NCBI GenBank assembly: GCA_043757515.1
Contig: JAYVPD010000012.1
Location: 1,658-65,657, forward strand
Length of the DNA: 64,000 bases
Direction: 5' to 3'
Source of the DNA: Pseudobdellovibrionaceae bacterium
Lineage (GTDB): Bacteria > Bdellovibrionota > Bdellovibrionia > Bdellovibrionales > Bdellovibrionaceae
Positions 4,120 through 44,224 of the stretch are shown here, in pieces (the stretch's first letter is position 1; each line of letters opens with the position of its first letter). Made by a program: the position numbers and the translations under genes. The notes under the pieces were generated by a model. That model saw nothing but the letters and a program-made list of their open reading frames with translations, did not search any database and was not told where the DNA came from.

Positions 4120-6594
4120 TTAATTTTCGAATCCGCTAACAGAAAGCATTCCTCTCGAAAAGACTCCGGTCCCCATAAGGCCAAAATTTGAATCGGTCCC
4201 CCAGCATTTTTCCGCGGAATTTATTATGGCACAGGTTACCGTTCTATAAGGCAATCCAACTGCAGTCACACTAGAACCCGAGGGGTAAATCGTTACGGGT
4301 GTCAATTTTTCAACTACGGTTCCGTCTCCACTGACGCCCGATGTGTTGGCGCCCCAGCATTTTAGCCCAGCATTAACAACGGCACAACCCTGATTGTAGG
4401 CTAGGTATCCGGAAGTAACGCCGCTTCCTTCTGCAATTACCAGTGTGGGCGTGGTTCGAGCAACCTTATCACCGACGCCAAGGCCCCCAGAGGTATTGGA
4501 ACCCCAGCAAAATAAACCCGAATTTTTAATTGCACAGAGATTAGTACTAGAACCAAAAACTTTAGTCACACCCGATCCTGGAGGAATAATATCGACAGGG
4601 GAAAGGCGCGTAGTTGTGCTGCCGTCACCGACGAGGCCACCCGAATTGAATCCCCAGCATTTTAGGCCGCCGGCAATCACTGCGCATGTCGTGGCTGAAC
4701 CTTCGAAAGACCAAGCCCCGACAATAATAACGTCGGTGACTCCAGATCCGCTGGCAAAAATCTGAACAGGCGAATTTCTCTGAGTGGTGCTTCCGTCACC
4801 AATTTGTCCTGTGTCATTGTATCCCCAGCAGTTTAAACCACCGTTAATGACAGCGCATGAAGAACCTTGGCGAACTTCAACTTTTGTGACTCCAGAGGCT
4901 GCGGCAATGGCCACTACGGGAGTGGTTGAACTTGAGGTCGTTGATCCATTTCCAAGTTGGCCAAACGTATTTGTTCCCCAACACTGCACCCCTCCTGCTA
5001 TGACTGAGCAGGCATAGGAATCAAAAAATGAATCGTACTGGGTCATTTGTATAGAGGAGGCGCCGCTGCCACTAGCAACAATTTGCATGGGAGCTAAACC
5101 GTAGCCTGAGCCCCAGCATTTAATTCCACCGTTTACAACCGCACACGTAGACGCATTTGTTGTGCCGGAAATTTCTGCCAAATCTGTAACCGAGCTTAAT
5201 GCCGGAATAGCGGTTACCGGTGTTGTCCTATTTGTTGAGGTACCATCTCCCACTCCTCCGTTTAGATTTGAACCCCAACATTTCACCCCTCCATTTTGAA
5301 TGGCGCAGTTTTGATAAACACTGTCATCATTTAGTAGGTCGGCCTTAGCAAGCGCGCTCACATTCGTGGTTAATCCAGAAACTGGCTGAGGACTTGTCCA
5401 GTTCATCGATCCACCAGAGGGGCCGGCCCCTAAAGTTCCCGCGCCCCAACATACAATTTTAGTGTTACCTTCAACGACGCAAACATTATTATTTCCGGAT
5501 GCTACAAAAGTTACTTGGGCAATTGTATCGAGTACTAAGTTTGGAACAAGTTTTGGCGACGTGCTGACGCAATCGTTTTGTTCACCGTATTGATTTGAGC
5601 CCCAGCACCAAAGTTGTCCGGCAACAAGTGCACAAGAATTTCCTATACCTAAAGCGGCCTGGGTAACTCCGCTTCCTGGTGGGTAAATGGAAACAGGTGA
5701 ATTGCGGGTAGTAGTCGTGTTATCGCCAAGATTTCCTGTCGAGTTAAGTCCCCAACAACTCAACCCACCATTTTTTAATGCGCAGCTGTGTCGAGATCCA
5801 GAATATATTTCCGAAACCCCCGTGCCCAGGGATGGGATTTTCACTGGCGCTAATCGAGCAAGTAAAGTTCCATCACCCAGTTGGCCATTGGTGTTTAATC
5901 CCCAGCACCAAACTTCTCCAGCTACAATTGCGCACGAATGAGTTGAACCCAGTGCGACTTTTGTTACCCCAAAACCTTGAGCAAAAATTTGAATCGGACT
6001 TGAACGAAGCGTATTCGAACCGTCTCCGACATAGCCGGCAGCACCCCAGCAATAAAGGCCTCCCAAACGTATAGCGCAAACAGCTGATGAGCCCACACTG
6101 ATAGCAGTAACACCACTGCCGCTTGCAATTGCTGTTACGAAAGTGGCCGAATTTGCAGTGGATCCGTTTCCCAGAAGCCCACTTGTGCCGGTACCCGAGC
6201 AGAGCACCCCACTATCAACAACAATACAGGTAACGTTCGGACCAACTGCAAAATCGCTAACGATTGGGGTTGGAATAACAGTGAGTGGATTCACTAAAAG
6301 CTTAGACGCACCTGGAATCCCAATTTGATCAAAATTATTGCTATCCCAACAATCCATTCCTTGATCATGAGACGCGCACGTTAAACCCGAGCCAGATATT
6401 TTTTTAATAACTTTAGGTACACTGACAACGGGTGGTATGGGATTTTGTTGACTAGGATCTGGATTGGATGAGCCAGGCGTTGTGGGGTCTGTATTTTTAT
6501 CATCAAGATTGCTGTTTAGACTCACAATGTGTGAGTCTAGAACACAGGAAAGCTGGAAGACGCTGACAAAAAATACCACAGCCAATTTAGTCAC
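4120..6594 (-). CDS. RCC1-repeat (beta-propeller) lipoprotein
   Basis: 824 aa with a GTG start. Signal plus Cys (VSVFQLSC). More than 14 copies of the ...C(W/S)G.N..GQLGDG(T/S).... repeat characteristic of RCC1/ATS1 blades. Confidence 0.8.
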   Translation of the reverse strand: MTKLAVVFFVSVFQLSCVLDSHIVSLNSNLDDKNTDPTTPGSSNPDPSQQNPIPPVVSVPKVIKKISGSGLTCASHDQGMDCWDSNNFDQIGIPGASKLLVNPLTVIPTPIVSDFAVGPNVTCIVVDSGVLCSGTGTSGLLGNGSTANSATFVTAIASGSGVTAISVGSSAVCAIRLGGLYCWGAAGYVGDGSNTLRSSPIQIFAQGFGVTKVALGSTHSCAIVAGEVWCWGLNTNGQLGDGTLLARLAPVKIPSLGTGVSEIYSGSRHSCALKNGGLSCWGLNSTGNLGDNTTTTRNSPVSIYPPGSGVTQAALGIGNSCALVAGQLWCWGSNQYGEQNDCVSTSPKLVPNLVLDTIAQVTFVASGNNNVCVVEGNTKIVCWGAGTLGAGPSGGSMNWTSPQPVSGLTTNVSALAKADLLNDDSVYQNCAIQNGGVKCWGSNLNGGVGDGTSTNRTTPVTAIPALSSVTDLAEISGTTNASTCAVVNGGIKCWGSGYGLAPMQIVASGSGASSIQMTQYDSFFDSYACSVIAGGVQCWGTNTFGQLGNGSTTSSSTTPVVAIAAASGVTKVEVRQGSSCAVINGGLNCWGYNDTGQIGDGSTTQRNSPVQIFASGSGVTDVIIVGAWSFEGSATTCAVIAGGLKCWGFNSGGLVGDGSTTTRLSPVDIIPPGSGVTKVFGSSTNLCAIKNSGLFCWGSNTSGGLGVGDKVARTTPTLVIAEGSGVTSGYLAYNQGCAVVNAGLKCWGANTSGVSGDGTVVEKLTPVTIYPSGSSVTAVGLPYRTVTCAIINSAEKCWGTDSNFGLMGTGVFSRGMLSVSGFEN

Positions 6595-24992: not shown

Positions 24993-25421
24993 ATGTCCGA
25001 TGTGCCAAAAAAAAAGCGCTTTTTGCCGGGGCGTTATTTAATTTATCCCGAAATTCAGCTTAAATATGCGTCTATTTTTACCGGTATTGTAGTAATAACT
25101 TTAGCTTTTTTTTTCGTGGGGGAATTTTTCTATCTCAGTCGTGGCGAGAGTCTTGGTATTGAACCAAGTCTGATTGAGGGAATTAAAGATAGTCTTATTT
25201 CCTTCAACTTGCTTGTGTTTATTATCTCTACTGTTCTGACATTTTTGGTTTCAATATTGATAACTCATCGATTTTTGGGTCCAGTCATAGCGATAAAGCG
25301 GGCCCTTGAAAATTATAAATCAGACAATCAAAACTTTAAAATTAAAATAAGAAAAACAGATGAAGCTCATTTATTGGTCAAAATATTAAATGAGTTTTTT
25401 GAAGGATTAGATGAAAAATAG
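24993..25421 (+). CDS. small two-TM membrane protein with HAMP-like linker
   Basis: 142 aa with two TM helices. THRFLGPVIAIKRALENY resembles the start of a HAMP domain. Its stop overlaps the downstream start by 11 nt. Confidence 0.5.
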   Translation: MSDVPKKKRFLPGRYLIYPEIQLKYASIFTGIVVITLAFFFVGEFFYLSRGESLGIEPSLIEGIKDSLISFNLLVFIISTVLTFLVSILITHRFLGPVIAIKRALENYKSDNQNFKIKIRKTDEAHLLVKILNEFFEGLDEK

Positions 25422-28038
25422 ACAGTTAGGTTTTTCATTGTTAGAGGTTCTAATTGCTATTGGACTTATGTCTTTGGTGGCCGTGTCTACAGCTACTTTG
25501 ATTGGTGAGCAAAACAAACAAATCAAATTAATGTCGCAAAAAATAGTTTTAAACGATACTAAAAATGCGTTTCTTGCAACTATGCAGGACACGGTATCGT
25601 GCCAGAAAAACTTGGATTCATCAGTCGATGCGTCGCTAGTTTTTAATTCAACTTTGGTTGGAAATAAATCGATGGCCCTAGCGCGTATACGAATTGGCCA
25701 CTTGGTAACCTCACCGATTTTGTTGGATACTGCTTTAGAAGTAAGTCCTGGGTCTCGACTATTTGTAAATAGCATTACCTTAGATAACCTAACCGATGTC
25801 GGTGGCGGAAAATGGTCGGGTGTTTGGAAAGTTGATTTTAGGAATGATTTTTCTTCATTTCAATTTAAGGCAATGGTTTTAAATCCGCAGTTATTTGATG
25901 TTGATATTACAACTCCGACCGCAGCGAAAATTACAAATTGTAGTTCGGTAGTGGCCGGTGGATCTGGTCAATGGGCCTCGTTGAATGCGGTCGATATATA
26001 TTATTCAGGTGGTATGGTCGGAATCGGCACGACGGCGCCGACGTCTCAACTTGAAATCACAGAAAATTTTAAACTTCCTGTGACTACGGGCGTGGCTGGA
26101 CAGATATTACAAGGGTCCAATCGTATCTTTCATACATTTGGAACCAATAGTCTATTTTTGGGACCTGATTCTGGTAACTTGGCACTGACGGGGGCAAATA
26201 ACCTTGGTGTTGGATTTCAAGCAGGTCGAGCATTGACGACTGGTTCGCAAAACACATTTGTCGGTGATCGCGCTGGTATGAGCAATACGACCGGGACATG
26301 GAATACCTACTTTGGTCAGTCGGCAGGACTATTAAATACGACGGGGAGTTCAAATTCATTTTTTGGAAGGAATGTCGCTGAAAATGGTACAACGGGCGCC
26401 GGTAACACAGCGGTAGGGTATCAGGCCGCTCGAACGCTGACTGTCGGAAATAATAATACATATATTGGAAATGCGGCTGGATTCACCGACGGAACCGTAT
26501 CAACGCCTGTTAATTTAGTAAACTCGGCAGCTATCGGATTTAACGCGCAGGTAACGGTCAGCAATGCTATGGTCTTAGGTGGTACCGGTGCTTCAGCAGT
26601 CAACGTCGGAATTGGGACAACGGCGCCTACTGAGCAATTGGAAATAACTGGAAATTTTAATTTGCCAAGCTCCACTGCTACTTCTGGGATAATTAAACAA
26701 GCGAATAGTTCTTTTATTCACAATGTAGGAACTCAGAGTTTTTTTGCAGGATCTTTAGCCGGCACCCTTTCCAATACAGGCTCCTTCAATACAGGTGTTG
26801 GCTACACAGCAATGAAAAGTGTGACAACTGGGACTATTAACACGGCGATCGGGCATCGCACAGCGGAGAGTCTTACAACGGGTAGTTACAATACCGCCTT
26901 GGGAGCCGGTGCTATGGCTAAGCAGACTAGCCCAAATGATAACACGGCTGTGGGTTCAAATTCTTTGGGAAATAATATCGTCGGCGTCGGGAATGCCTAC
27001 ATTGGAGATTCTAGTGGTCGACGTACCGAAGGTAACTACAACTCAGGCATTGGCCAACAAGTCATGTACACCCTGGTCGGCGGAAGTTTCAATTCTGGAA
27101 TAGGAAACAACGCCGGAACTGCAAATGTAGGCGGCAGTAATAATACATTTCTAGGAACAAATGCGAACACGACGACTGACGGTTTTAATTTTGCGACGGC
27201 TGTGGGTGCTGGGGCACTGGTTGGCGCTTCAAATTCACTTGTGCTTGGGGCGCCGGGCACGAATGTCGGAATTGGAGTCAGCGTCCCAGTAAGAACTTTA
27301 GATGTGCAGGCAACTAATGCTAGGATAATGGCCACTTCAACAACAAATAGCAATGCAGCCGCTGTGCGGGCATTTAATGGAATTAATGAAATTACATTAG
27401 GAGTTGAATCAAGTGTGGGGGGAGCCCTGATGACCGGGACTCTCCCCTATGCAGCATTACTCTCTTCTGACTTTAGCTGGCCATTGCAATTCGCAGTGTT
27501 TGGTGGCGTAAAAATGACAATTCTCACTGATGGTAGTGTTGGGATTGGAACAGCGGCACCTACGCAAAAACTAGAGGTAAATGGTACCATCAAAACTGTT
27601 GATTTAATTTATTCATCGGATCGTCGCGCCAAACACAATATCATGTCTTTGTCTCCGGAAGAAAGTCTGGAAAAAATCTGTGCGATTAGGCCAGTTGCCT
27701 TTGATTGGAATTATTCTGATCGTCACGATCAGGGTGTGATTGCACAAGAACTTCAATCTGTATTTCCTGACTTTGTTGTGCGAGGCTCAGATGGCAATTA
27801 TTCAGTGAAATACAATTCTCTGCTGGCTCCTTTGATTTCGGCAGTTCAATTTTTGAATACGCGACTATCTCGCATAGAAACCAGTACTAAAATTCTTGAA
27901 GAAAAAATAGCACGGCTTGAAATTGAAAATAAAATGCTTTTATTAAAACAGTATGATCTTGAAGCTAGGCAATCTAAACTAGAAGTAAAAATTGAAAAAT
28001 TATTGACTGAAAATAAACCTAAACAGGCTGCTAGGTGA
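25411..28038 (+). CDS. chimeric fibre: type IV prepilin leader + pilin-like head + tail-fibre-like repeats + peptidase S74 intramolecular chaperone domain + coiled coil
   Basis: 875 aa. MKNRQLG/FSLLEVLIAIGLMSLVAV has Gly-1, Phe+1 and Glu+5. Cys64...Cys177 form a possible pair. Four G(I/V)GT.AP...LE(I/V).G motifs. YSSDRRAKHNI...GVIAQELQSVFPDFV...YSVKYNSLLAPLISAVQ matches the S74 domain. The C-terminus shows a heptad pattern. GAAGGA RBS. Confidence 0.8.
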   Translation: MKNRQLGFSLLEVLIAIGLMSLVAVSTATLIGEQNKQIKLMSQKIVLNDTKNAFLATMQDTVSCQKNLDSSVDASLVFNSTLVGNKSMALARIRIGHLVTSPILLDTALEVSPGSRLFVNSITLDNLTDVGGGKWSGVWKVDFRNDFSSFQFKAMVLNPQLFDVDITTPTAAKITNCSSVVAGGSGQWASLNAVDIYYSGGMVGIGTTAPTSQLEITENFKLPVTTGVAGQILQGSNRIFHTFGTNSLFLGPDSGNLALTGANNLGVGFQAGRALTTGSQNTFVGDRAGMSNTTGTWNTYFGQSAGLLNTTGSSNSFFGRNVAENGTTGAGNTAVGYQAARTLTVGNNNTYIGNAAGFTDGTVSTPVNLVNSAAIGFNAQVTVSNAMVLGGTGASAVNVGIGTTAPTEQLEITGNFNLPSSTATSGIIKQANSSFIHNVGTQSFFAGSLAGTLSNTGSFNTGVGYTAMKSVTTGTINTAIGHRTAESLTTGSYNTALGAGAMAKQTSPNDNTAVGSNSLGNNIVGVGNAYIGDSSGRRTEGNYNSGIGQQVMYTLVGGSFNSGIGNNAGTANVGGSNNTFLGTNANTTTDGFNFATAVGAGALVGASNSLVLGAPGTNVGIGVSVPVRTLDVQATNARIMATSTTNSNAAAVRAFNGINEITLGVESSVGGALMTGTLPYAALLSSDFSWPLQFAVFGGVKMTILTDGSVGIGTAAPTQKLEVNGTIKTVDLIYSSDRRAKHNIMSLSPEESLEKICAIRPVAFDWNYSDRHDQGVIAQELQSVFPDFVVRGSDGNYSVKYNSLLAPLISAVQFLNTRLSRIETSTKILEEKIARLEIENKMLLLKQYDLEARQSKLEVKIEKLLTENKPKQAAR

Positions 28039-28703: not shown

Positions 28704-28756
28704 TAATGTTTTGTAATTTTAAAGCCACTCGATTGTATATCAAGCATGGGGGTCCT

Positions 28757-30163
28757 ATGTTTAAATCGATTTTTTCAGCGTTTGTTTTTTTTCTGTTAAT
28801 AACTCAGGCGGCTTTTGCAGATGATTACGTCCAAAAAATAGGGGATCAATTCGTACAGAATTTGCCCGGTGATTGGAACGCTTCGGTCGGTACGTGGACC
28901 TATTTTGACATTATAAAATGCTTCACAACTCCGGGTGCGTCTTGTTTTGGAAATAATCCATCAAGCCCCTATGGACAGCCAAACTTTCTTGATCCTGATA
29001 CCCAACAAATGAGTAACGTATTTCAAATGAATTATGATGAGGCAGTCGTTTTAATCTTTCGTACACCTCCTCAAATGCGATACTATTCATTTGTCCAATA
29101 TCTGTTTTCAGAACCTGGATCTACGTCGCCTGTTTTTGCAAGTCTAAGTGATGCCCTTAACATGAAAAAACTTGGAACCTCAGGATCAAACCAAATTGGT
29201 GGAAGCCCCTTTGACACATACTCAGCTGTTGTTTGGACTGCCGACATTAATACCTTTAATTCAGTGCAGTCTCAATTGCTTGCACTTGGTTTACCTGACA
29301 CGGCAATTAACTTTTATCCTATGCCAAGAACACTACCATTAAATCCAGATAAGACATTGCCTATGGGCTATGGCGGCCAAGCGGACTCATTTTCAATGTT
29401 AATGCGAACAGCCTTGCCCTCAGTACCAGCTAATTTCACACAATATATGAATGAAAAGCCATTTTATGTTCTCAAAGTAGGACCATCACTGCATTTGACG
29501 CCAAGTCCAGCTCCCGTCATAGGTTACGCAAGCGAAACTTCGGGAATAGTTGAAGCCAGTGGATTGCAGTCGGCACTTAATAAACTAGTGAGTGACATCA
29601 AAAATCAGTATTCAACAAACTACGCTTTGAAAAACCAAACGGTAGACTACACGTCAAAAGTTGGCTGGGATTGTATAAAAGGTGTCTCGCAATGTGCGGG
29701 GGACAATCACGATGCATTGTATTCTCAAGATGTGGACCGCCCTGTAGTTGTTTCTTCCTTAGATGATTTGGTTATTGTTGCTGGTGTCAATCATCAAAAA
29801 ACTGGAAAGGCCACGTACCTCAATCACGCAGTCTATGACACTAAAAAAATGGCGGGCATAGTTTCCGTAGCCGACACTTATTTTACAACTGGCAGTGCGC
29901 TTTATCACGCAGGTGTTACTAACCCCAGTGATATTAGAAATCGTATGTATCAGAATCTGTATGCCTACGTAATTTCGTATAATTGCGCTGGACGACAATA
30001 CTGTCTTCAGATTCCAGCTCCGACTCCAGACAATCCAGTTGGGCTTAACCCTGGTGCCCCGTTTTTTGTAATGGGTCGAAGTTATCTAGAACCTCACACT
30101 TTGGTTCGACCGTCACCAGATGAAATTGTTCACCATCAAGTTTATGTGGCTTCTAAAAGGTAA
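28757..30163 (+). CDS. secreted hypothetical protein
   Basis: The ATG at 28757 gives MFKSIFSAFVFFLLITQAAFA-DD, a signal peptide. About 468 aa. No family was recognised. Confidence 0.6.
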   Translation: MFKSIFSAFVFFLLITQAAFADDYVQKIGDQFVQNLPGDWNASVGTWTYFDIIKCFTTPGASCFGNNPSSPYGQPNFLDPDTQQMSNVFQMNYDEAVVLIFRTPPQMRYYSFVQYLFSEPGSTSPVFASLSDALNMKKLGTSGSNQIGGSPFDTYSAVVWTADINTFNSVQSQLLALGLPDTAINFYPMPRTLPLNPDKTLPMGYGGQADSFSMLMRTALPSVPANFTQYMNEKPFYVLKVGPSLHLTPSPAPVIGYASETSGIVEASGLQSALNKLVSDIKNQYSTNYALKNQTVDYTSKVGWDCIKGVSQCAGDNHDALYSQDVDRPVVVSSLDDLVIVAGVNHQKTGKATYLNHAVYDTKKMAGIVSVADTYFTTGSALYHAGVTNPSDIRNRMYQNLYAYVISYNCAGRQYCLQIPAPTPDNPVGLNPGAPFFVMGRSYLEPHTLVRPSPDEIVHHQVYVASKR

Positions 30164-30397: not shown

Positions 30398-30420
30398 AGA
30401 TTGAATTTGTGAGGTTACCC

Positions 30421-30810
30421 ATGACTAAAAAACTGAAAGACGAAAAACTTTTAACTGAAACTGAACTTGAATTAATTAGTATCCTTTGGAAATTAGGTGA
30501 AGGCAGCGTTGCCGACGTCCTTGCTATGCTTTCAGAAGATCGGGACCTTGCTTACACATCTGTTTCGACAATTTTAAGAATTCTTGAACAAAAAAAAATT
30601 CTGAAAGCTCGTAAAGAAGGCCGTGGTCATGTGTATATTCCTGTTCTTAGCAAAAAAGATTATGAAGAACGCACGGTTAGGCATGTAGTAGAAAATGTAT
30701 TTGATGGAACGCCAATGGCCTTGGCAAAACAACTCCTTATAACCAATCAGCTTACTAAAGACGATCTCGCCGAATTAAAAAAAATGATCGAAAAAGCGGA
30801 GAAACTCTAA
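30421..30810 (+). CDS. BlaI/MecI/CopY family transcriptional repressor
   Basis: The ATG at 30421 follows a GAGG. Winged-helix LTETELELISILWKLGEGSVADVLAML...YTSVSTILRILEQKKIL...GRGHVYIP. Confidence 0.85.
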   Translation: MTKKLKDEKLLTETELELISILWKLGEGSVADVLAMLSEDRDLAYTSVSTILRILEQKKILKARKEGRGHVYIPVLSKKDYEERTVRHVVENVFDGTPMALAKQLLITNQLTKDDLAELKKMIEKAEKL

Positions 30811-32438
30811 TGGGTTCTAGTTTGCTAAACATTTTTGTTAATGTTCATATTCTAGTGATTCTAGCTATGACTTTAAGTTTTTTTCTGAGGCTCTGTTGTC
30901 AAAGAAAAATTTTGAATGTGTCTGCAAAAAATGAAATGACTCTTAACAATATCCTTATTTTAGGTATCTTTGTTTTACCATTGATTGCCTATTCTGGGTC
31001 TGAAAGGTTTAGTTTTCAAACTGTGACAAAAACAGTGGCAGCCTTGTCCTACAAAGAGTTTGATGCCCATCTTACAGTTCCGTTAAAAGAAAACCTTATT
31101 CTTGGCAGTGATCCGATGTCACCGGTGATACCGATGGACTATCTAAAAAATGGGATCCTATTTATTTTATTCTTAACGATTCTTATTTCAATTTTTCAAA
31201 TACTATCCGAACTAAAAATTTTTTATCGAATTGCAAAAAAATCCATTGTCGTTCGTTCAATTGGTAGCACCCGAATTGCCTTTTCAGATCAGATTCAAAT
31301 ACCCTTTTCATTTTTGTTTTTTAGAACTGCCTGGGTTATTCTGCCGACTCGGTTTTTAGGCAATAAAAGTAAAATGAGAATGTCAATTCTGCATGAGTTG
31401 CAACATCATAGACAGGCGGATACTCGTTGGATATATCTCTGGCAATTGATGAAAGCGGCAGTGGGAGTCAATCCCGCCTTGAAGATTTGGCAGGGTTTGG
31501 TTTCTGAAGTTCAAGAATTAAAAGTTGATGAAAATTTGGTCGACCAAAGAAAGGTCACTGCAGTGAATTACGCTCGCTGTTTGATCGAGGTAGCTGAAAC
31601 CGTTGTGACGGAGGAAAAACGATTTGTTTGCGCAACAAGTTTAGTTTTCTTTCCCGATCGACAACAATTAAAACGGAGGATTGAATCCATGTTAAATAGA
31701 AAAATGGGCAGCAAGGTCGCTGCATTTGTAATAGCCGGTGTGTTTGTATCATCGATGACAACATTTGCACTAGGTACCAGAAAATTGATAGGAACACGAT
31801 CGGTAACATTGGCAGAGGCTGAAGTGATGGCGGCTGTGGCTAGGAAAGACAGTCAGTTTCCAATCGTTGTGAACGAGCTAGTTTTAGTTCAGTTGAATCG
31901 ATTTCTAGGAACAAAACAAGGCCGAGATTTTATGAAAGGGTCAATAAAGCGAATGGATCAGTACCGATCCATTATCGAAACAAAAATTAAAATGTTTCCC
32001 CATAAAATGCCTTTAGAACTATTGGCAGTTCCCTTGATTGAATCGGGCTATGTGAACATGCCATCATTAAAAAACAAATACAAGGCCGCGGGACTTTGGC
32101 AATTTATTCCGGAAACAGCGCTTGTTTATGGATTGCGAGTGGATGTAAAAGCGTCTAGGCCAGATGTAAGTTCTGTCGAGGACGAACGCCTTGATGTTGC
32201 GCTTTCAACCGATGCGGCACTTAATTATATTTGGTCCAATCAGCTTAGGTTTCATGATTGGCTCCTAGCGATGGCTGCCTACAACATGGGGGAAAATAAC
32301 CTAAAGACTGCAATTGATAAAATGGGCACGGACGATGTGTGGCAATTAGTGCGAGCCGGCTATGAAGGTGACAAAGCCTACCTTGCTAAGCTTGAAGCCG
32401 CTATTTTGATTTTAAAAAATCCGGATTCCTTGAACTAG
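30810..32438 (+). CDS. BlaR1-like M56 metallopeptidase fused to a C-terminal lytic transglycosylase (SLT/GH23) domain
   Basis: 542 aa. N-terminal TM helices. Zinc motif SILHELQHHRQAD. After a further TM helix: PLIESGYVNM, AAGLWQFIPETA and AAYNMGENN, typical of SLT. 1-nt overlap with the repressor stop (TAATG). Confidence 0.8.
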   Translation: MGSSLLNIFVNVHILVILAMTLSFFLRLCCQRKILNVSAKNEMTLNNILILGIFVLPLIAYSGSERFSFQTVTKTVAALSYKEFDAHLTVPLKENLILGSDPMSPVIPMDYLKNGILFILFLTILISIFQILSELKIFYRIAKKSIVVRSIGSTRIAFSDQIQIPFSFLFFRTAWVILPTRFLGNKSKMRMSILHELQHHRQADTRWIYLWQLMKAAVGVNPALKIWQGLVSEVQELKVDENLVDQRKVTAVNYARCLIEVAETVVTEEKRFVCATSLVFFPDRQQLKRRIESMLNRKMGSKVAAFVIAGVFVSSMTTFALGTRKLIGTRSVTLAEAEVMAAVARKDSQFPIVVNELVLVQLNRFLGTKQGRDFMKGSIKRMDQYRSIIETKIKMFPHKMPLELLAVPLIESGYVNMPSLKNKYKAAGLWQFIPETALVYGLRVDVKASRPDVSSVEDERLDVALSTDAALNYIWSNQLRFHDWLLAMAAYNMGENNLKTAIDKMGTDDVWQLVRAGYEGDKAYLAKLEAAILILKNPDSLN

Positions 32439-36928: not shown

Positions 36929-39118
36929 ATGTTTGGGTTTTTAATGATATTACCTGCAATGAAATCAAAATGGAAAACACGGCAGAACGGAATTGTTAGG
37001 CTATGTGCCATTATCCTTGTTGCCGCTCTTTTTGGCTCAAATAAATCGTCTGCAGCACAATTAAATTCCAAAACAGATGGTTTGGTTTCCTTGGTATCAC
37101 AATCATACTTTCTTAAGCAGTGTTTATTGCTGGAACAAATTCAAGATCCCGGCCAGAAGGTCGCTGCTTTTGATTCTGTTGTCCAGCGGCTTATAGAGTT
37201 TGATACTAAACATCGAAGCCAGATGAGTCTGACAAATCCAGTTGCAAAATCCCTGGCAAAATGGACCCAAGCCGAATTCATAGACTATGTTGCAGAACAA
37301 CTTGAATCTAAGTATTGGAGTTTAGCTGATGAAGCCAAGTTTCAGGATCTTCTTTCTAGCCGTCCTGATTTTTTTGAAATTCCATTACAGGAAATAGACA
37401 ACAATCCAGCCGCTAAAGCGTACTATAAAAGTCTTGTTGATAGTTTTAATGCCTATGACTTCGGAATTCCGGGTGCTTCGGTGGGTTTCCTTAGGCCGGT
37501 TATTAGAGGCGGAGCCAGTGCTTTATTTGGACTACTTAAACAGCCGGGTGCTGTGAAACTACAAATAATCGCCAATATTGAAAATGCTTTGGGCAGTAGG
37601 AAAAAAAGTTTACTTTTGATTCCAAAACAAATTATTAAATTGGGCCATTTAAACTTTGGAAATCCAACAGACCAGCGATTTTTCGAACTTTTAATTGGAA
37701 ACTATTTTTCCGACATTTCAGATGAATCTGCTCAAAACATTCTAAAAAAGTTGATCGAGCGACCAGACAAAAATTCACCAATGGATATTTTCAGGCTCCT
37801 AGTGCATCACTCAGATCCAATTTTTCAAAAGCTTTTACAGTTTGTTGCTCGACGGCCTGGTTTTTCGCCAGACTTGCAGGCGGTCTTTATTGAGCTAGAA
37901 AACTCGGGGATGGTTGAACCATAGGAAAAAGTGGGTGACCGGCTGAAGGCCGCGCCAGTAGGGTATCGTTGGAAGAATCCATGGAATGCAAGCAATCAGA
38001 AACCACTCGCAGGGACGATGGCTCAGACCTATTTTGCGAGTGCCATCCATAAGCACACCAAAGAAAAAGTCGATCTGGTGGCTCGCGTATTAAAAGACCC
38101 GGTAGCTCTAGCGAAACGAATTGAAACCGCCTATGCAAAACTGAAATCGCTCGCAAGGCACATGGATCAAGACCCGGTATTGCGAGCCAATCATTTTCCG
38201 CTGATCGACCCTTTAGTTGACGATGCCCGAGACTTTACAACTCGTGAACTAGATCTGGAACTAACAAAAGCAAATCAACAGCAAGGTGAAACCTATTATC
38301 CCGAGCGTGTGGAAATATCCAAAAAGTTGTCCATTGAATTTGTATCGCCAAAATCATTGGATTCGAAAGTTTCTTCCGTGCTCTATTCCACCCGAATGCC
38401 AGGGGTTAAATTTGATGAATTTTCGCGACTCTTTCCGGAGCTAGCGGGCGTCGTTGCCGAGGCGACTGTAAAAAAGTGGATCGAAGTGGCTTTTTTCAAA
38501 GGTTTATTTTTCCATGGCGATTTGCATCTAGGAAATATGAATGTGGAGGTCATTCAAGGACGAACAACGACCGTTCGTGTTGGCCTTTTTGACTATGGAA
38601 TTTCTGGCCATCTCGATGAGTCCCATTCTTCGATAATGGCTCGTCTTGAATTGGCTGCAAAAAATAAGCGGTCGGCAGTCTTGATGGCAAAGTATATTTG
38701 GATGCTATCTGATCCCGATAGTCAAACAATGAATCTGGATACACTGACCCGTAAAATGCGCGAACATAAAAAGGAAAAGAGAAGTCCAATAAGTGCCGCG
38801 GGATGGCTGTCCTGGGCCCTTTCCGAAGGACTTAAATTGGAAAAAAACATCAATGTGCTCGTTCGCGGGTTAGGAACCATGGAAATTCTTCTCAGTTCGG
38901 GCGGCTCAAATAAAAGTATAGGCGATTTGTATCTCGACGTGGCCATGGAAAATATAGCAGTCTCTTCAGACTATGTGATGAAGGCAAGCGACGATCAAAT
39001 CGGGGCTGGAGAAGGGCCAATCGATGAAGAGTTAAAACTGAGGAGCGAACTTTTTAAAGGTCGCTCTGGTATTAATTCGTGCCCGGGTTTTTATAAAACC
39101 AGCAAAGTTAAAAATTAG
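36929..39118 (+). pseudogene. ABC1/UbiB-family atypical kinase-like gene interrupted by one in-frame TAG (37922-37924)
   Basis: ORFs 36929..37924 and 37931..39118 are in the same frame. The ABC1 domain spans the stop: ...DPIFQKLLQFVARRPGFSPDLQAVFIELENSGMVEP*EKVGDRL...KPLAGTMAQTYFAS...FHGDLHLGNMNV...VGLFDYGISG. Confidence 0.55.
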
Positions 39119-41384
39119 TGACGAAACCCAGTGTTCCAGTAGATTGAGATTCCACCCCTACACCGTCTTTTTGAAATGTTTCTCGGTTACTTTTATCCTG
39201 GCGGCCTTCAAGTCTTAAAATTAAATTGGCATTGATTCGATTTTCAATCGTCAAAGTAAAACTCGTAAGTTTTTGTCCGTCAGTAAATGATTCTCCAAAA
39301 ATTAGATTGTCTTTGTCATCAGCGACTTCATATCTTGGCGAGACAGCCCATTTTTTACTAAATTGATATTTGGAATACACTGCAGTTCCGGTTGCGCTAT
39401 ATATTCCATGTACATAGCTATCAAAATTGATTGCAAACGAAAGCTTGTCATTCACTTTGTAAGAAGCAATAAAGTCATACAGGTTGCGATTTTGAACTGT
39501 ATTTCCTGCGTCTAGATTTGTAGGAAGGGTACTTGTACCACCCATTGTGTTTAAATAAAAAGAAAGTGAATCTGTAGGATTCCAATTGATTTGGGTTCCA
39601 TAGGATTTTTGACGAGAGTTAACGTACGAATTATTCCAACCATCTGCAACCAATGCCATAACTGAAAGTTTATCATTTATAGAATAGGTAGCCTTTACGC
39701 CTTGATGCCAAGCGGGTTGAAAATACCCACAAAGTAAACCGCGTGAATAATTCCAGTCATCTTGAGTTTCGGCTACTTCAAAACCAATATGAGTATAGAA
39801 TCGGCCCACTTCTATTTTTAAGCTTTCTAAGAGTTTATAACCAACATAAGCCTGATTCATATTTATTTGCGCCGCATCCGTCTTTGTGCCTGACAAAACT
39901 TGCATCGCTGGACCATATCCAAAGTCTAAAGTAGTCGATAGTTGTGAAATTGTTTTTTGAATTTGTAAATGCGCGTAACTGATTTGTAAATCGTCGTGGT
40001 ACAAATCGAAAACACGGTATTTATTTTGCGATTTTGAATCAGCAGCTGTCGGTGTTGCTGTATTAACGGCTGGATTGTTGCTATTGTATAAATAGTAACC
40101 ATCAACAGAGCCTTTTAATGTCACTCCAGAAAATAGTTCTACTAATTTATTTAGGTCTTCGTCTTTAGGTTTTTGATCAGCGTCTGTTAGGGCAATATAA
40201 TATGAAATATCTTTGTCGATTTGACTAGTTAAATGAATTCTAAAATGATTGATAATTTGAATAGTCCCAGCCGCATCTAGGTCTTGGCTAAACGGACTAT
40301 CTATGCCTCGCAATAGAGTGATCTCGACTGGTTCCCGAGTTGCCAAATTGAAAGCCAGGACACCGGACGCCATCAGTATCAGACTACCATAGGCGTAAGT
40401 TTTTAGTCTCCAAAATTGAAATGAAGAGTTATCTAAACTACTGTAACTAATCAGTCCCCTGGGTTTCTTAACTTTTTTCATTATCTCATCACAGGCATCG
40501 ACACAGGCTGTGCATGAAATACATTCCATTTGAAGGCCGTTTCGAATATCAATTCCAGTTGGACACACTTCTACACATCGATTGCAGCCGACACAGTCCC
40601 CGGTGTTTCGGCCTAGGTTTTTAAAATCTCGCCTGGGTTCGCCCCGTTTTTGGTCGTAGACAATAGCTAAAGAGGAAGGCTCCATCAGTACGCTTTGTAT
40701 GCGGCCATAGGGACACATGATGATGCAGAACTGTTCGCGAAACCAAGCAAAATTAAAAAGCAGGACAGCGGTGAATGCCATCACAAGTAAAAAATAATTC
40801 CAGTTATCAGTGGGCGAACCGTTTATCATCTTAAGGAGCTCTATAGATCCTGTAAAATAAGCGACGAAACTATGAGCGAATAGAGTTGAAACCAAGAAAA
40901 ATAATATCCATTTAAATGTTTTTTTCCTAAATTTTAAAAAGGACCAAGATTCTAAATTGAGTTTCCGCCTTTCAATATATTTTCCTTCGGTCCAAATTTC
41001 AATTTTACGATAAACAGCATCTATAAAAACAGTTTGAGGGCAGGCCCAACCGCACCATATTCGACCCCAAATCGATGTTACCAAAGCTAGGCCTAAAGTC
41101 AAAATCGCTAGTAATAGAAAAATAAGTGGCGCATCATGAGACTTAAAAATCAGTCCAAAAAAAATAAACTCACGGCTTTGAATATTTAGCAGGACCAGTT
41201 GATGCCCTTGAAAGTGAATCCAAGGAAGACCTAAAAAAACAAGCAGCAAACCAATTTGAACCCGAGTTCGATGCTTTCTAAAATAACCCTGAACCTCGGC
41301 GGGAATAATATTTATTCTAGCGCCGTGTTCGTCAATACTGGTTAGTTTGAATTGGTCTTTGCGTTTGTCATTGTTCTGTTGCAT
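39108..41384 (-). CDS. ccoG: CcoG/FixG-type 4Fe-4S ferredoxin membrane protein fused to a C-terminal porin-like beta-barrel domain
   Basis: 758 aa. aa 1-400: CGWACPQ, CPYGRIQS, CVGCNRCVEVCP, CISCTACVDAC and TM helices, as in CcoG. aa ~418-758: SGVTLKGSVDGYYLYNSNNP..., alternating beta-strand pattern, terminal ...LGFVTNF, as in OmpL/BBP2-type porins. Confidence 0.7.
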   Translation of the reverse strand: MQQNNDKRKDQFKLTSIDEHGARINIIPAEVQGYFRKHRTRVQIGLLLVFLGLPWIHFQGHQLVLLNIQSREFIFFGLIFKSHDAPLIFLLLAILTLGLALVTSIWGRIWCGWACPQTVFIDAVYRKIEIWTEGKYIERRKLNLESWSFLKFRKKTFKWILFFLVSTLFAHSFVAYFTGSIELLKMINGSPTDNWNYFLLVMAFTAVLLFNFAWFREQFCIIMCPYGRIQSVLMEPSSLAIVYDQKRGEPRRDFKNLGRNTGDCVGCNRCVEVCPTGIDIRNGLQMECISCTACVDACDEIMKKVKKPRGLISYSSLDNSSFQFWRLKTYAYGSLILMASGVLAFNLATREPVEITLLRGIDSPFSQDLDAAGTIQIINHFRIHLTSQIDKDISYYIALTDADQKPKDEDLNKLVELFSGVTLKGSVDGYYLYNSNNPAVNTATPTAADSKSQNKYRVFDLYHDDLQISYAHLQIQKTISQLSTTLDFGYGPAMQVLSGTKTDAAQINMNQAYVGYKLLESLKIEVGRFYTHIGFEVAETQDDWNYSRGLLCGYFQPAWHQGVKATYSINDKLSVMALVADGWNNSYVNSRQKSYGTQINWNPTDSLSFYLNTMGGTSTLPTNLDAGNTVQNRNLYDFIASYKVNDKLSFAINFDSYVHGIYSATGTAVYSKYQFSKKWAVSPRYEVADDKDNLIFGESFTDGQKLTSFTLTIENRINANLILRLEGRQDKSNRETFQKDGVGVESQSTGTLGFVTNF

Positions 41385-41959: not shown

Positions 41960-42122
41960 GGGATTCTCCGGCTTCAAATGGTAAGGTTTCAATTCTTTTA
42001 TAGAGAATTCTATTTCGGCTGATGGAGGTCCACCAAAGTACGCCAACAAAAAAGAGGAAAAAAATAATAAGTCCAATTGAAGTTAAATAAGTGTCGTTAA
42101 AGTAGGATAGTCCGTCTTTCAT
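41952..42122 (-). CDS. ccoQ: cbb3 oxidase small subunit CcoQ-like
   Basis: 56 aa from the ATG at 42122 (TAATG overlap with the ccoNO stop): MKDGLSYFNDTYLTSIGLIIFFLFFVGVLWW... Single TM. The position between ccoO and ccoP supports the call. Confidence 0.55.
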   Translation of the reverse strand: MKDGLSYFNDTYLTSIGLIIFFLFFVGVLWWTSISRNRILYKRIETLPFEAGESHD

Positions 42123-44224
42123 TATTTTTTTCCTTTTTGTCCTAGACATTGAATATAGGCAATTAAAGCTACGATTTCCTTTTTTTCCATTCCAGCAGGC
42201 ACGCCGTTAGCTTCTAGGTCTTTGGCAATTTCAAGCGCTTGTTTTTGAGCAACAATATCCGCATTTGCAACGGTGTCGTCATCATATGGGACGCCTAAAT
42301 ACCGCATCACAGATAGTTCTTTTCGCAGAGGCAAAAAATCCATCGAGTGTTCGATCAGCCAAGGATAGTTGGGCATAATACTTTTTTGCGTCATGCTTCG
42401 GGGGTCTATCATGTGATTGTAGTGCCACAGATTATTATATTTTTTTCCAACACGAGCTAAATCAGGCCCTGTTCTTTTGGATCCCCATTGAAAGGGTCGA
42501 TCATACATGGATTCTTCAATCGTTGACGCTTTTCCATAGCGTAAAACATCAGCAGGTATTTGTCGAATCTGCTGAGAATGGCAAAGGTAGCAGCCTTCAC
42601 GAATATAAAGTCCACGCCCCGCTAATTCCAAAGGGGTGTAAGGTTCAGTCGCATCGTTCGGACTGATATAGCGATTAAGAGACAAGGTTGGGTAGATTTC
42701 AATTATCGAACCAACTGCGATGGCTAAAAAAGCAAGAACTGAAAATGTAAAACCAAGGCCTTCTAGCTTTCTATGTGGGTCTTCATTTTTTTCATCAAAG
42801 CCAGTTCTTGATACTTCCACGCCGCTGTCTTGCACCGTTTTAGGCGCCAGTTGAATTGTTTTATAGACGTTGTAAATCATCAGCATAAAACCGACGATAA
42901 AAAGAAATCCGCCTCCTGCCCGAACCCAGTAAAGGGGAACAATTTTAGAAACAGTTTCTACAAAATCGGGGTACGACAGTTTGCCGTTTGGCTCGACCGC
43001 CAGCCACATCAGACCCTGAGTAATGCCCGCTGTGAGCATCGACGTGTAATAGAGCACAACGCCGGTTAGCGCGATCCAAAAATGCTGCTGCATTAGTTTT
43101 TCACTGTACATCTTAGTGTTCCAGAGTTTTGGAATCAGGTAGTAAAACATACCAAAAATAAGCATACCATTCCAGCCAAGAGCACCGCCATGAACGTGCC
43201 CAATGATCCAATCTGTGTAGTGGCCAAGGGCGCTTACACTTTTTATGGACAACAAGGGGCCTTCGAAAGTCGCCATTCCATAAAATGTTAAGGCGGCAAT
43301 AAAAAATCGAATAATTGGATCGGACCGCAGCCTTTGCCAAGCCCCTTTGATTGTCAAAAGGCCATTGATCATGCCGCCCCAACTGGGGGCCCAAAGCATA
43401 ACTGAAAAAACCATTCCCAGAGTTTGCGCCCAATCAGGTAAAGACGTGTAAAGCAAATGATGAGGACCCGCCCAAATATAAATAAATACCAACGCCCAAA
43501 AATGAATGATGGAAAGGCGATAGGAATAAACTGGCCTACTAGCAGCTTTTGGAACAAAATAGTACATCAAACCAAGGAAGGGAGTCGTTAAAAAGAAAGC
43601 AACGGCATTGTGTCCATACCACCACTGAACTAGCGCATCCTGAATTCCTGAATAAACAGGAAAACTTTTAAACGCAGCGACTGGGATTTCGATGGAATTA
43701 ACAATATGCAAAACGGCGACTGTTATGATTGTGGCGATATAAAACCAAATCGCCACATACATGTGTTTTTCGCGTCGATTTTTAATCGCACCAAAAAAAT
43801 TGACAGCAAAAACAACCCAAATCAGTGTGATAGCGATGTCAATAGGCCATTCCAGTTCGGCGTATTCTTTTGATTGAGTGTAACCCAGGGGTAAGGTAAT
43901 AGCGGCAGAGACTATAATAAGTTGCCAGCCCCAAAAATGGATTTTTGAAAGAGTATCTGAAAGCATTCGGGTTTTAAGCAACCGTTGTGTTGAATAATAA
44001 ATCCCGGCAAAAATAGCATTTCCTGCAAATGCAAAGATAGCGGCGTTGGTATGCAAGGGTCGCAAGCGACCGAAAGTAATCCATTCTAAATTAAAATTCA
44101 TAGGCCAGTAGGCCAGTTGCAAAGCGATGACTAATCCAAATAGAAAGGCAGCGCCTCCCCAAATTAGTGTGGCTAGCACAAACTTTTTAACGATCTCGTC
44201 GTCATATTTTATAAATTCTTTCAT
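42122..44224 (-). CDS. ccoNO: fused cbb3-type cytochrome c oxidase subunits I and II
   Basis: 700 aa. About 12 TM helices of haem-copper oxidase type (HVHGGALGWNG, HFWALVFIYIWAGPHH), followed by a CcoO part with LYIREGCYLCHSQQIR. Confidence 0.9.
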   Translation of the reverse strand: MKEFIKYDDEIVKKFVLATLIWGGAAFLFGLVIALQLAYWPMNFNLEWITFGRLRPLHTNAAIFAFAGNAIFAGIYYSTQRLLKTRMLSDTLSKIHFWGWQLIIVSAAITLPLGYTQSKEYAELEWPIDIAITLIWVVFAVNFFGAIKNRREKHMYVAIWFYIATIITVAVLHIVNSIEIPVAAFKSFPVYSGIQDALVQWWYGHNAVAFFLTTPFLGLMYYFVPKAASRPVYSYRLSIIHFWALVFIYIWAGPHHLLYTSLPDWAQTLGMVFSVMLWAPSWGGMINGLLTIKGAWQRLRSDPIIRFFIAALTFYGMATFEGPLLSIKSVSALGHYTDWIIGHVHGGALGWNGMLIFGMFYYLIPKLWNTKMYSEKLMQQHFWIALTGVVLYYTSMLTAGITQGLMWLAVEPNGKLSYPDFVETVSKIVPLYWVRAGGGFLFIVGFMLMIYNVYKTIQLAPKTVQDSGVEVSRTGFDEKNEDPHRKLEGLGFTFSVLAFLAIAVGSIIEIYPTLSLNRYISPNDATEPYTPLELAGRGLYIREGCYLCHSQQIRQIPADVLRYGKASTIEESMYDRPFQWGSKRTGPDLARVGKKYNNLWHYNHMIDPRSMTQKSIMPNYPWLIEHSMDFLPLRKELSVMRYLGVPYDDDTVANADIVAQKQALEIAKDLEANGVPAGMEKKEIVALIAYIQCLGQKGKK

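Follow-up and report, generated by a model that had tools for sequence, protein, structure and literature searches.

Can a type IV pilin and a self-cleaving S74 chaperone be parts of one polypeptide, and what would such a polypeptide build? This question is raised by a gene for a protein of 875 amino acids (aa) that lies in a 64,000-nucleotide (nt) stretch of DNA from a Pseudobdellovibrionaceae bacterium (GenBank assembly GCA_043757515.1, contig JAYVPD010000012.1, positions 1,658 to 65,657 of the forward strand), which was analysed as a whole and is referred to below as the window. The organism is known from metagenome assemblies only. We read the gene as a candidate modular type IV pilin, in which a small pilin module is joined to a stalk and tip resembling those of phage tail fibres and of the mosaic adhesive trimer (MAT) fibres of Bdellovibrio, followed by a removable S74 chaperone. 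As a trimer, the protein would sit at the tip of a type IV filament, or initiate it. We give this reading a probability of about one half; the features on which it is based are collected in Table 1.

Both ends of the protein were recognized by profile searches. The sequence begins MKNRQLG/FSLLEV, where the slash marks the predicted cut, with a glycine at position -1, a phenylalanine at +1 and a glutamate at +5. The Pfam model N_methyl (PF07963) matches residues 3-26 with 25.3 bits (gathering score 21.2, E 1.1e-5), and the NCBIfam model TIGR02532 scores 17.6 bits against a cut-off of 16.3. At the other end, Peptidase_S74 (PF13884) matches residues 736-789 with 51.4 bits (cut-off 22, E 1.4e-13). 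A single open reading frame (ORF) hence combines N_methyl (IPR012902) with Peptidase_S74, a domain foreign to pilus biology, which is the combination by which modular type IV pilins are recognized. The start of the ORF is fixed: an in-frame stop codon lies immediately 5' of the ATG, leaving no further-upstream start, and therefore the leader is no artefact of an over-long ORF call. A ribosome-binding site, GAAGGA, precedes the ATG by 5 nt. Cleavage of the leader and N-methylation of Phe8 by a prepilin peptidase are predicted from these residues.

With regard to the region that follows the leader, an AlphaFold2 model built from a 36-sequence alignment reached a mean predicted local distance difference test score (pLDDT) of 90.8; a run with 4 sequences had given an unusable model (pLDDT 49.6). 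The model shows a helix spanning residues 10-59, with pLDDT above 90, followed by nine beta strands. The protein has cysteines at positions 64, 177 and 757, the first two within this head. Judging from the model, the head would combine the sequence hallmarks of pilins with their general topology, a helix and an antiparallel beta sheet, in a fold unassigned to any solved pilin. Neither Pfam nor NCBIfam has a model for the globular part of the head.

The head belongs to a large family. When it was searched alone (aa 1-200) with a word index, 2 relatives were found, and a 36-sequence profile retrieved 10; the family was revealed by an exhaustive profile search of 1.84 billion cluster representatives, which returned 739 matches at E<=1e-3, 137 of them also at E<=1e-10. 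Almost all of these matches span the whole head, most of them profile positions ~4-185. In an alignment of 94 members, Gly7, Cys64 and Cys177 are the sole invariant columns, and homologues do not start downstream of the leader, since Gly7 is present in 94 of 94. N_methyl is matched at E<=0.01 in 65 of the 94, the +1 residue is phenylalanine in 47 and the +5 residue is glutamate in 63. About one third have G-(Q/N/S)-S-L-(I/V)-(Q/S/G) in place of G-F-S-L-x-E, and are without Phe+1 and/or Glu+5. Matches of family members to named minor pilins (ComGE, PRK10557, GspI, PilV) are weak.

Most members of the head family are 240-400 aa long and consist of the head and a small C-terminal module. The modules identified by Pfam are Gly_rich_2, Shufflon_N, YadA_head, H_lectin and Peptidase_S74, the last of which was found in 16 of the 94 aligned clusters, and hence in at least 16 of the family. 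By bearing interchangeable C-terminal modules in this way, the head behaves as a module that carries adhesins. A close relative, P0121, illustrates the exchange: it keeps the head and the first capping loop and then continues into a different C-terminal region of ~100 aa.

The full architecture of the window protein recurs at 90% identity in P0002, from an independent assembly of a Pseudobdellovibrionaceae bacterium, which was the only relative found in a scan of the genome collection. It also recurs in at least 14 further clusters, formed at 50% identity. Given this recurrence in an independent assembly and in further clusters, the architecture is not a chance product. A scan of metagenomes for the close clade of the head returned one short contig, and the same scan of viral contigs returned nothing. 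The most reduced member is P0139, a protein of 339 aa on a Logan contig of 3129 bp, in which a prepilin leader, the head and one capping loop are followed directly by S74 and the coiled coil. Self-cleavage of P0139 would leave little beyond the head, so that the S74 domain could hardly have a role there other than uniting three heads. This points to S74 as a trimerization device for the pilin module itself.

A second line of evidence comes from tandem copies. Six head-S74 genes follow one another at locus L004 (6006-18225; GCA_043720065.1, contig JAYSTF010000028.1), and the same array was found at L005 (17-12236). The L004 array consists of two overlapping triplets, A-B-C and A'-B'-C'. Corresponding genes are 73% (A and A'), 59% (B and B') and 66% (C and C') identical between the triplets, and A, B and C are 38-44% identical to one another. 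In the B chains only, the glycine is followed by SSIVQ, without Phe+1 and Glu+5; A and C retain GF(S/T)L(L/I)E. Loss of Glu+5 is a known trait of tip pilins, and GspK, the top pilin of the GspIJK pseudopilus tip, is without Glu5. Three co-expressed paralogues, copied together as one block, speak for a fibre of three chains. The triplets suggest heterotrimeric fibres with three different pilin modules, a proposal that we derive from gene order and sequence comparison.

Between the head and the S74 domain, the protein is built as a fibre. The stalk contains two blocks of N-T-x-(V/I/F)-G-x-x-A...T-T-G repeats (~aa 281-371 and 460-594), for both of which BLOSUM autocorrelation peaks at offsets 17 and 34, giving a period of 17 residues. 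Four capping-loop motifs, G-I-G-(T/V)-x-x-P-x-x-x-L-(E/D)-(I/V), begin at aa 204, 400, 620 and 711 (nt 26020, 26608, 27268 and 27541). A search with the whole protein returned 4897 homologues; where their sources give a name, it is 'trimeric autotransporter adhesin' or 'tail fiber domain-containing protein'. By tblastn, aa ~194-590 are 29-37% identical to tail-fibre, appendage and endosialidase genes in 134 phage records; aa 1-193 are covered by no match in these records. The stalk alone has no sequence match in the PDB.

The S74 domain carries the S-D-x-x-x-K dyad motif as SDRRAK (aa 736-741), in which nt 27616-27618 encode Ser736 and nt 27631-27633 encode Lys741. The motif aligns to its counterparts in MyRF (7dc3), a tail fibre (8jov) and the distal subunit of a phage long tail fibre (6f45), and self-cleavage between Ser735 and Ser736 is predicted by analogy. 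The last 75 residues are rich in leucine (L, E and K make up 19, 12 and 12%), and a single heptad register places Leu or Ile at nearly every 'd' position. The original prediction had named most of these elements, and they were borne out: the prepilin leader and S74 domain, through N_methyl, TIGR02532 and Peptidase_S74, which all pass their cut-offs; the C64/C177 pair, invariant in the alignment of 94; the four G(I/V)G..P...L(E/D)(I/V) motifs, within 3-8 nt of where it had placed them; the tail-fibre-like stalk with its N-T-x-(I/V)-G repeats, which are real and have the period given above; and the C-terminal heptad coiled coil. Its mention of a predatory bacterium was well aimed too: P0002 stems from a Pseudobdellovibrionaceae bacterium, and NCBI taxonomy has Bdellovibrio in that family.

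Which known fibre does this part of the protein resemble most? When the C-terminal 271 aa were compared with solved structures by HMMER, the best match was Bd2133 of Bdellovibrio bacteriovorus (8ond, E 1.8e-8). It runs through three 'MTI..G.VGIGT.APT..L.V.G' capping-loop blocks. Next came MyRF 7dc3, the phage chaperone regions 8jov and 6f45, and, more weakly, four B. bacteriovorus chains called 'cell wall surface anchor' (8ojn, 8on4, 8ol4 and 8oml), of which 8ojn aligns at two such blocks. The B. bacteriovorus chains that were matched appear to be MAT fibres; the depositors' Bd2133 label stands on 8ond only. Caulton et al. (2024, PMC10769870) described 21 MAT proteins from strain HD100, and in 13 of them the C-terminus is an S74 domain with SDxxxK. 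These fibres have capping loops, are displayed on the surface and undergo proven self-cleavage (Ser782 of Bd3182; PMC10769870). Their N-terminus consists of an ordinary signal peptide and a domain of ~130 aa, conserved and rich in beta structure, which has no structural homologue in the PDB (PMC10769870). The same authors named a possible interplay between MAT fibres and type IV pili as a point of interest (PMC10769870).

The window protein shares with MAT fibres the C-terminal S74 domain with SDxxxK, the repeated capping loops, of which two precede the catalytic serine, and the taxonomic family, NCBI taxonomy placing both Bdellovibrio and Pseudobdellovibrio in Pseudobdellovibrionaceae. The spacing from loop to loop is 91 aa and from loop to serine 25 aa here, compared with 96 and 30 aa in Bd3182 (from residue numbers quoted in PMC10769870); therefore aa ~612-735 are probably a Bd3182-like tip that would be uncovered by release of S74. 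In contrast to MAT proteins, with their ordinary signal peptide, the window protein has a prepilin leader, a pilin-type helix of ~50 residues and a different, or at least unmatched, head. Sequence comparison places the fibre part nearest to the MAT fibres of Bdellovibrio.

The combination of N_methyl and S74 has been listed before. Raynaud et al. (2021, PNAS, PMC8179133; Dataset S1) searched InterPro for proteins with IPR012902 and a foreign domain, and counted 29 proteins with IPR012902-IPR030392, the sixth most frequent architecture among modular pilins; IPR012902-IPR008640-IPR030392, with YadA-like repeats, adds 4 and 3 proteins. The authors considered modular pilins to be probably exposed at the tip, and their only comment on the S74 module is that pili may present a peptidase activity (PMC8179133). 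Full-text literature searches found no other paper treating this architecture. The order of parts is the same as here: class III signal and pilin module, optional repeat stalk, C-terminal S74. The earlier work differs in being a database count, with a representative that, by figure order, apparently comes from a Clostridiales bacterium; the window protein has a distinct, unnamed head family, MAT-type capping loops and an origin in the Bdellovibrio family. The original prediction's view that the architecture had not been described is thus overturned by this list. It had also asked whether the combination is a common, already characterized family: catalogued it is, characterized it is not. The window protein is a further member of an architecture that has been catalogued but never characterized.

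Among pilins of known assembly, the nearest parallel is the minor pilin CofB, whose C-terminal beta domains mediate homotrimerization and whose trimer is the initiator complex that caps the type IVb pilus (PMC6048534). CofB offers a precedent for what the original prediction had seen as a conflict, pilins entering filaments as monomers and S74 acting in trimers. CofB and TcpB (PMC6048534, PMC5207764) resemble the window protein in having a pilin module followed by beta-rich C-terminal domains and in forming a homotrimer at the pilus tip, the trimer being a proposal in our case. The CofB tip has the fold of an H-type lectin, and one member of the head family carries an H-type lectin module. They differ in that CofB and TcpB are encoded in pilus operons and have type IVb leaders and no S74 domain, whereas the window gene is an orphan, its leader has 7 aa and a chaperone that is later discarded would drive trimerization. 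Searches of PDB sequences gave no match to CofB or TcpB, and no pilus operon surrounds the window gene. We regard the resemblance as functional only.

Two other groups of fibres share parts of the design. Phage fibres and tailspikes such as the K1F endosialidase and the L-shaped tail fibre of T5, a group to which the PDB matches 8jov and 6f45 belong, have the S74 Ser-Lys dyad, the helical region that follows it and a repeat stalk. They differ from the window gene, which is cellular and chromosomal and in which a prepilin module replaces the N-terminus for virion attachment. Trimeric autotransporter adhesins of the YadA type have comparable short stalk repeats rich in Gly, Asn and Thr. The window protein differs from them in its repeat period of 17, the period of the YadA head repeat being 14, and in having no C-terminal beta-barrel anchor; neither YadA_anchor nor YadA_head was found in it with Pfam.

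Taken together, these parts suggest the following sequence of events. By way of the alpha1N helix, the class III signal would insert the protein into the inner membrane, with the remainder in the periplasm. Prepilin peptidase would cut off MKNRQLG and methylate Phe8. The S74 domain and coiled coil would join three chains in the periplasm and, beginning at the C-terminus and working backwards, template the fold of the beta-rich stalk. Ser736 and Lys741 would then release the chaperone at the predicted site, as do the chaperone domains of phage endosialidases and tail fibres and that of Bd3182. What would result is a fibre with three chains of 728 aa each; its base would consist of three pilin heads and three membrane-embedded helices. 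Like CofB and TcpB, such a trimer could be the complex that forms the tip of a type IV filament or initiates it, with major pilins polymerizing below it and pushing the fibre through the secretin. The tip exposed by cleavage would bind a surface ligand, plausibly on the prey cells of this Bdellovibrio-family organism.

We favour the modular pilin at a filament tip because both terminal domains pass their cut-offs, Gly7 is invariant and the head model gives a confident helix of ~50 residues and a beta sheet. It is favoured also because the modules are swappable, because a minimal head-S74 protein exists and because of the triplets at L004 and L005. The orientation fits a tip fibre, because the anchor is N-terminal and the distal end is the one uncovered by release of S74, as in MAT and phage fibres (PMC10769870). 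Precedents exist for a trimeric minor pilin at the tip (PMC6048534) and for modular pilins, including those with N_methyl and S74 (PMC8179133). Finally, B. bacteriovorus, a member of the same NCBI family, needs type IV pili for predation, according to one report (PMC3983030), which is a further reason for this choice. The original prediction had already envisaged three pilin helices holding a trimeric fibre at the tip of a pilus, a reading that we share and that gains support from the two tandem A-B-C triplets.

Several results weigh against a place at a pilus tip. No gene for prepilin peptidase, pilus or type II secretion system (T2SS) machinery and no second prepilin motif were found in the window, and the relatives examined are orphans too, with no pilus, T2SS or prepilin peptidase genes adjoining. 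A Foldseek search of the head model against the PDB gave no significant match and no pilin, the best hits (E 0.15) being VirB8/NTF2-like folds; against viral models (BFVD), nothing significant was found. NCBIfam matches of the window protein to named minor pilins (PRK10557, GspI) lie far under the cut-offs and cover the N-terminal helix only. A bolder form of the proposal, which we hold only tentatively, extends it to the head family, placed so far only in a metagenome-assembled genome of the Bdellovibrio family: its members would be obligate trimers built by S74, a homotrimer here and an A-B-C heterotrimer in the triplets, and would serve as type IV tip complexes bearing a phage-like fibre for prey recognition.

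The orphan state of the gene is also what recommends a different reading, in which the pilin-like module serves only to anchor the protein in the membrane or to export it: the fibre, matured as outlined above, is held at the inner membrane by three alpha1 helices, or is lifted to the surface by a short, T2SS-like pseudopilus, and is never part of an extended pilus. The weak similarity of the N-terminal helix to T2SS minor pseudopilins (GspI, GspH, GspJ) in many family members is in line with it, and a small membrane protein encoded upstream and translationally coupled in one clade hints at a private partner for assembly or anchoring. A useful adhesin must nevertheless cross the outer membrane, for which this reading offers no route distinct from a pilus or T2SS, and a filament tip accords better with the variable tips and with the absence of Glu+5 from exactly one chain of each triplet. 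We consider it doubtful, if worth keeping in mind. Less probable still is an ordinary MAT-type surface fibre, in which the N-terminus would be a Sec-type signal or anchor, the N_methyl match incidental and the head a domain that binds the cell surface, like the N-terminal domain of MAT proteins. The third of the head family without Phe+1 and/or Glu+5 would suit a Sec signal; on the other side, loss of Glu+5 is itself a trait of tip pilins. A prepilin leader occurs, among the 120 best fibre homologues, only in the identical P0001 and in P0002; the other 118 are without one, most of them with classical Sec-type signal peptides. A putative signal-peptidase I site, S-T-A before T, lies near aa 28, and the ~130-aa MAT domain (PMC10769870) and the head studied here are alike in having no PDB match. 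A Sec signal would, however, need neither a glycine at -1 invariant in 94 of 94 sequences, nor F/x-S-L-(I/V)-E in two thirds of them, nor a helix of ~50 residues, and N_methyl scores above its gathering cut-off in the window protein and is matched at E<=0.01 by 65 of the 94 relatives. An ordinary MAT fibre is therefore unlikely in our view.

Were the gene that of a phage's tail fibre, in a prophage or a remnant of one, and its hydrophobic N-terminal helix a product of chance, the match of the stalk to 134 phage records would be accounted for, as would the S74 domain, which is best known from phage tailspikes and fibres. Such an origin is very improbable, given that the neighbouring genes are chromosomal, with no phage genes around, that no phage match reaches aa 1-193 and the viral-contig scan for the close clade of the head was empty, and that synteny is retained in a second genome, at locus L001. 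The window has a G+C content of 41.6%, and its genes include murB and those for spermidine synthase, PPK2, an extracytoplasmic function (ECF) sigma factor, thiolase, an AHSA1-like protein, BlaI/BlaR, an OmpA-family protein, cbb3 oxidase and kdp. Genomic context and recurrence in independent assemblies led us to reject a prophage, and likewise a fusion created during assembly.

Table 1. Positions, in window coordinates, of the fibre gene, the parts of its product and the two genes that overlap it.
Feature	Residues	Position (nt)	Strand	Remarks
Whole fibre gene, modular pilin-like fibre protein	875 aa	25411..28038	+	Stop codon 28036-28038
Class III (prepilin) leader peptide MKNRQLG		25411..25431	+	Predicted prepilin-peptidase cut after Gly7
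Pilin-like module	aa 8-195	25432..25995	+	Helix to ~aa 59, then beta-rich head with Cys64/Cys177
Hydrophobic alpha1N	aa 8-31	25432-25503	+	Part of pilin-like module
Stalk	aa 196-611	25996..27243	+	From motif and autocorrelation analysis
Capping loop 1	aa 203-216	26017-26058	+	Bounds stalk
Capping loop 2	aa 399-412	26605-26646	+	Bounds stalk
Predicted distal tip	aa 612-735	27244..27615	+	Between loops 3 and 4; end that would be exposed after S74 release; fold inferred
Capping loop 3	aa 619-632	27265-27306	+	Bounds predicted tip
Capping loop 4	aa 710-723	27538-27579	+	Bounds predicted tip
Peptidase S74 intramolecular chaperone/autoprotease domain	aa 736-800	27616..27810	+	PF13884
C-terminal heptad coiled coil of chaperone	aa 801-875	27811..28035	+	Would leave together with S74
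Small membrane protein gene	142 aa	24993..25421	+	Two hydrophobic segments, HAMP-like C-terminal region (ITHRFLGPVIAIKRAL...)
Secreted protein gene, 16 Cys	189 aa	28035..28604	+	(F/Y)C(D/N)GSNW motif twice

The fibre gene and its two flanking genes look translationally coupled. The 3' end of the gene for the 142-aa membrane protein overlaps the start of the fibre gene by 11 nt, and the GTG start of the gene for the 189-aa protein overlaps the fibre-gene stop codon. The 142-aa protein has no Pfam match at E<=0.01; its tail shows the HAMP-like pattern ITHRFLGP..AIKRAL..IR.TDEA. Homologues are encoded directly 5' of P0002 (L001 1457-1876) and of P0125 (L003 9712-10047), and others are read as N-terminal extensions of two database proteins, P0144 and P0127, apparently fused to the pilin. 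No homologue is present upstream of the L004 array. Conserved gene order marks the 142-aa protein as a putative partner of the pilin-like gene in one clade. The 189-aa protein has no match in Pfam or NCBIfam. Its gene is kept at the same position in L001 (4442-5008) and was not found adjoining P0125 or the L004 array; the protein may be an accessory protein. The gene 3' of it (28706-30163, + strand) encodes a secreted protein of 485 aa with no family match, and the 189-aa and 485-aa genes occur in the same order in L001.

Some other genes of the window have unusual domain compositions. A BlaI-type repressor gene (30409-32438, + strand) is followed, within the same interval, by one for a BlaR1-like protein of 542 aa (Peptidase_M56), which has a C-terminal SLT lytic transglycosylase domain in place of the penicillin-binding sensor; the pair is kept in L001. 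Adjoining the cbb3 oxidase genes, an ORF of 758 aa (39108-41384, - strand) joins Fer4_18/Fer4_5 4Fe-4S dicluster domains (aa ~90-316) to BBP2, an outer-membrane beta-barrel porin domain that is present in full (aa 421-758). This is an odd mix of a ferredoxin of cytoplasmic-membrane type and an outer-membrane barrel, and it may be two genes read as one. An ORF of 700 aa (42122-44224, - strand) contains COX1 (cbb3 subunit I, aa 11-441) and mono-haem FixO/CcoO (aa 484-696) and is an apparent CcoN-CcoO fusion. Putative surface proteins are encoded at 46913-52072 (+ strand; 1719 aa, containing Big_1 and, at its C-terminus, DUF1554, with a weak endostatin-like match besides) and at 4120-6594 (- strand; 824 aa, built of RCC1 repeats).

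What the comparison suggests as new is the link to MAT fibres, a large unnamed head family with swappable tips, operons of triplets and a role for S74 as trimerizing chaperone of a pilus-tip module. These give a biological reading to an architecture that had previously been counted and taken for a peptidase: S74 would be the folding and trimerizing chaperone of a tip adhesin. For type IV filament biology, the 739 representatives of the head family, the swappable tips, the chain without Glu5 in the triplets and the minimal head-S74 protein provide leads to follow. In the bolder form of the proposal, S74 would have been taken into service for building a pilus tip complex and not just a fibre, and MAT-like fibres would be provided with one kind of anchor. 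The gene described here bears on how predatory bacteria recognize prey and on how their phage-like MAT fibres are attached to the cell. In its product, a pilin module is linked directly to a fibre of MAT type that S74 would mature, which offers a concrete, testable link, namely that such a fibre may be carried on the tip of a pilus.

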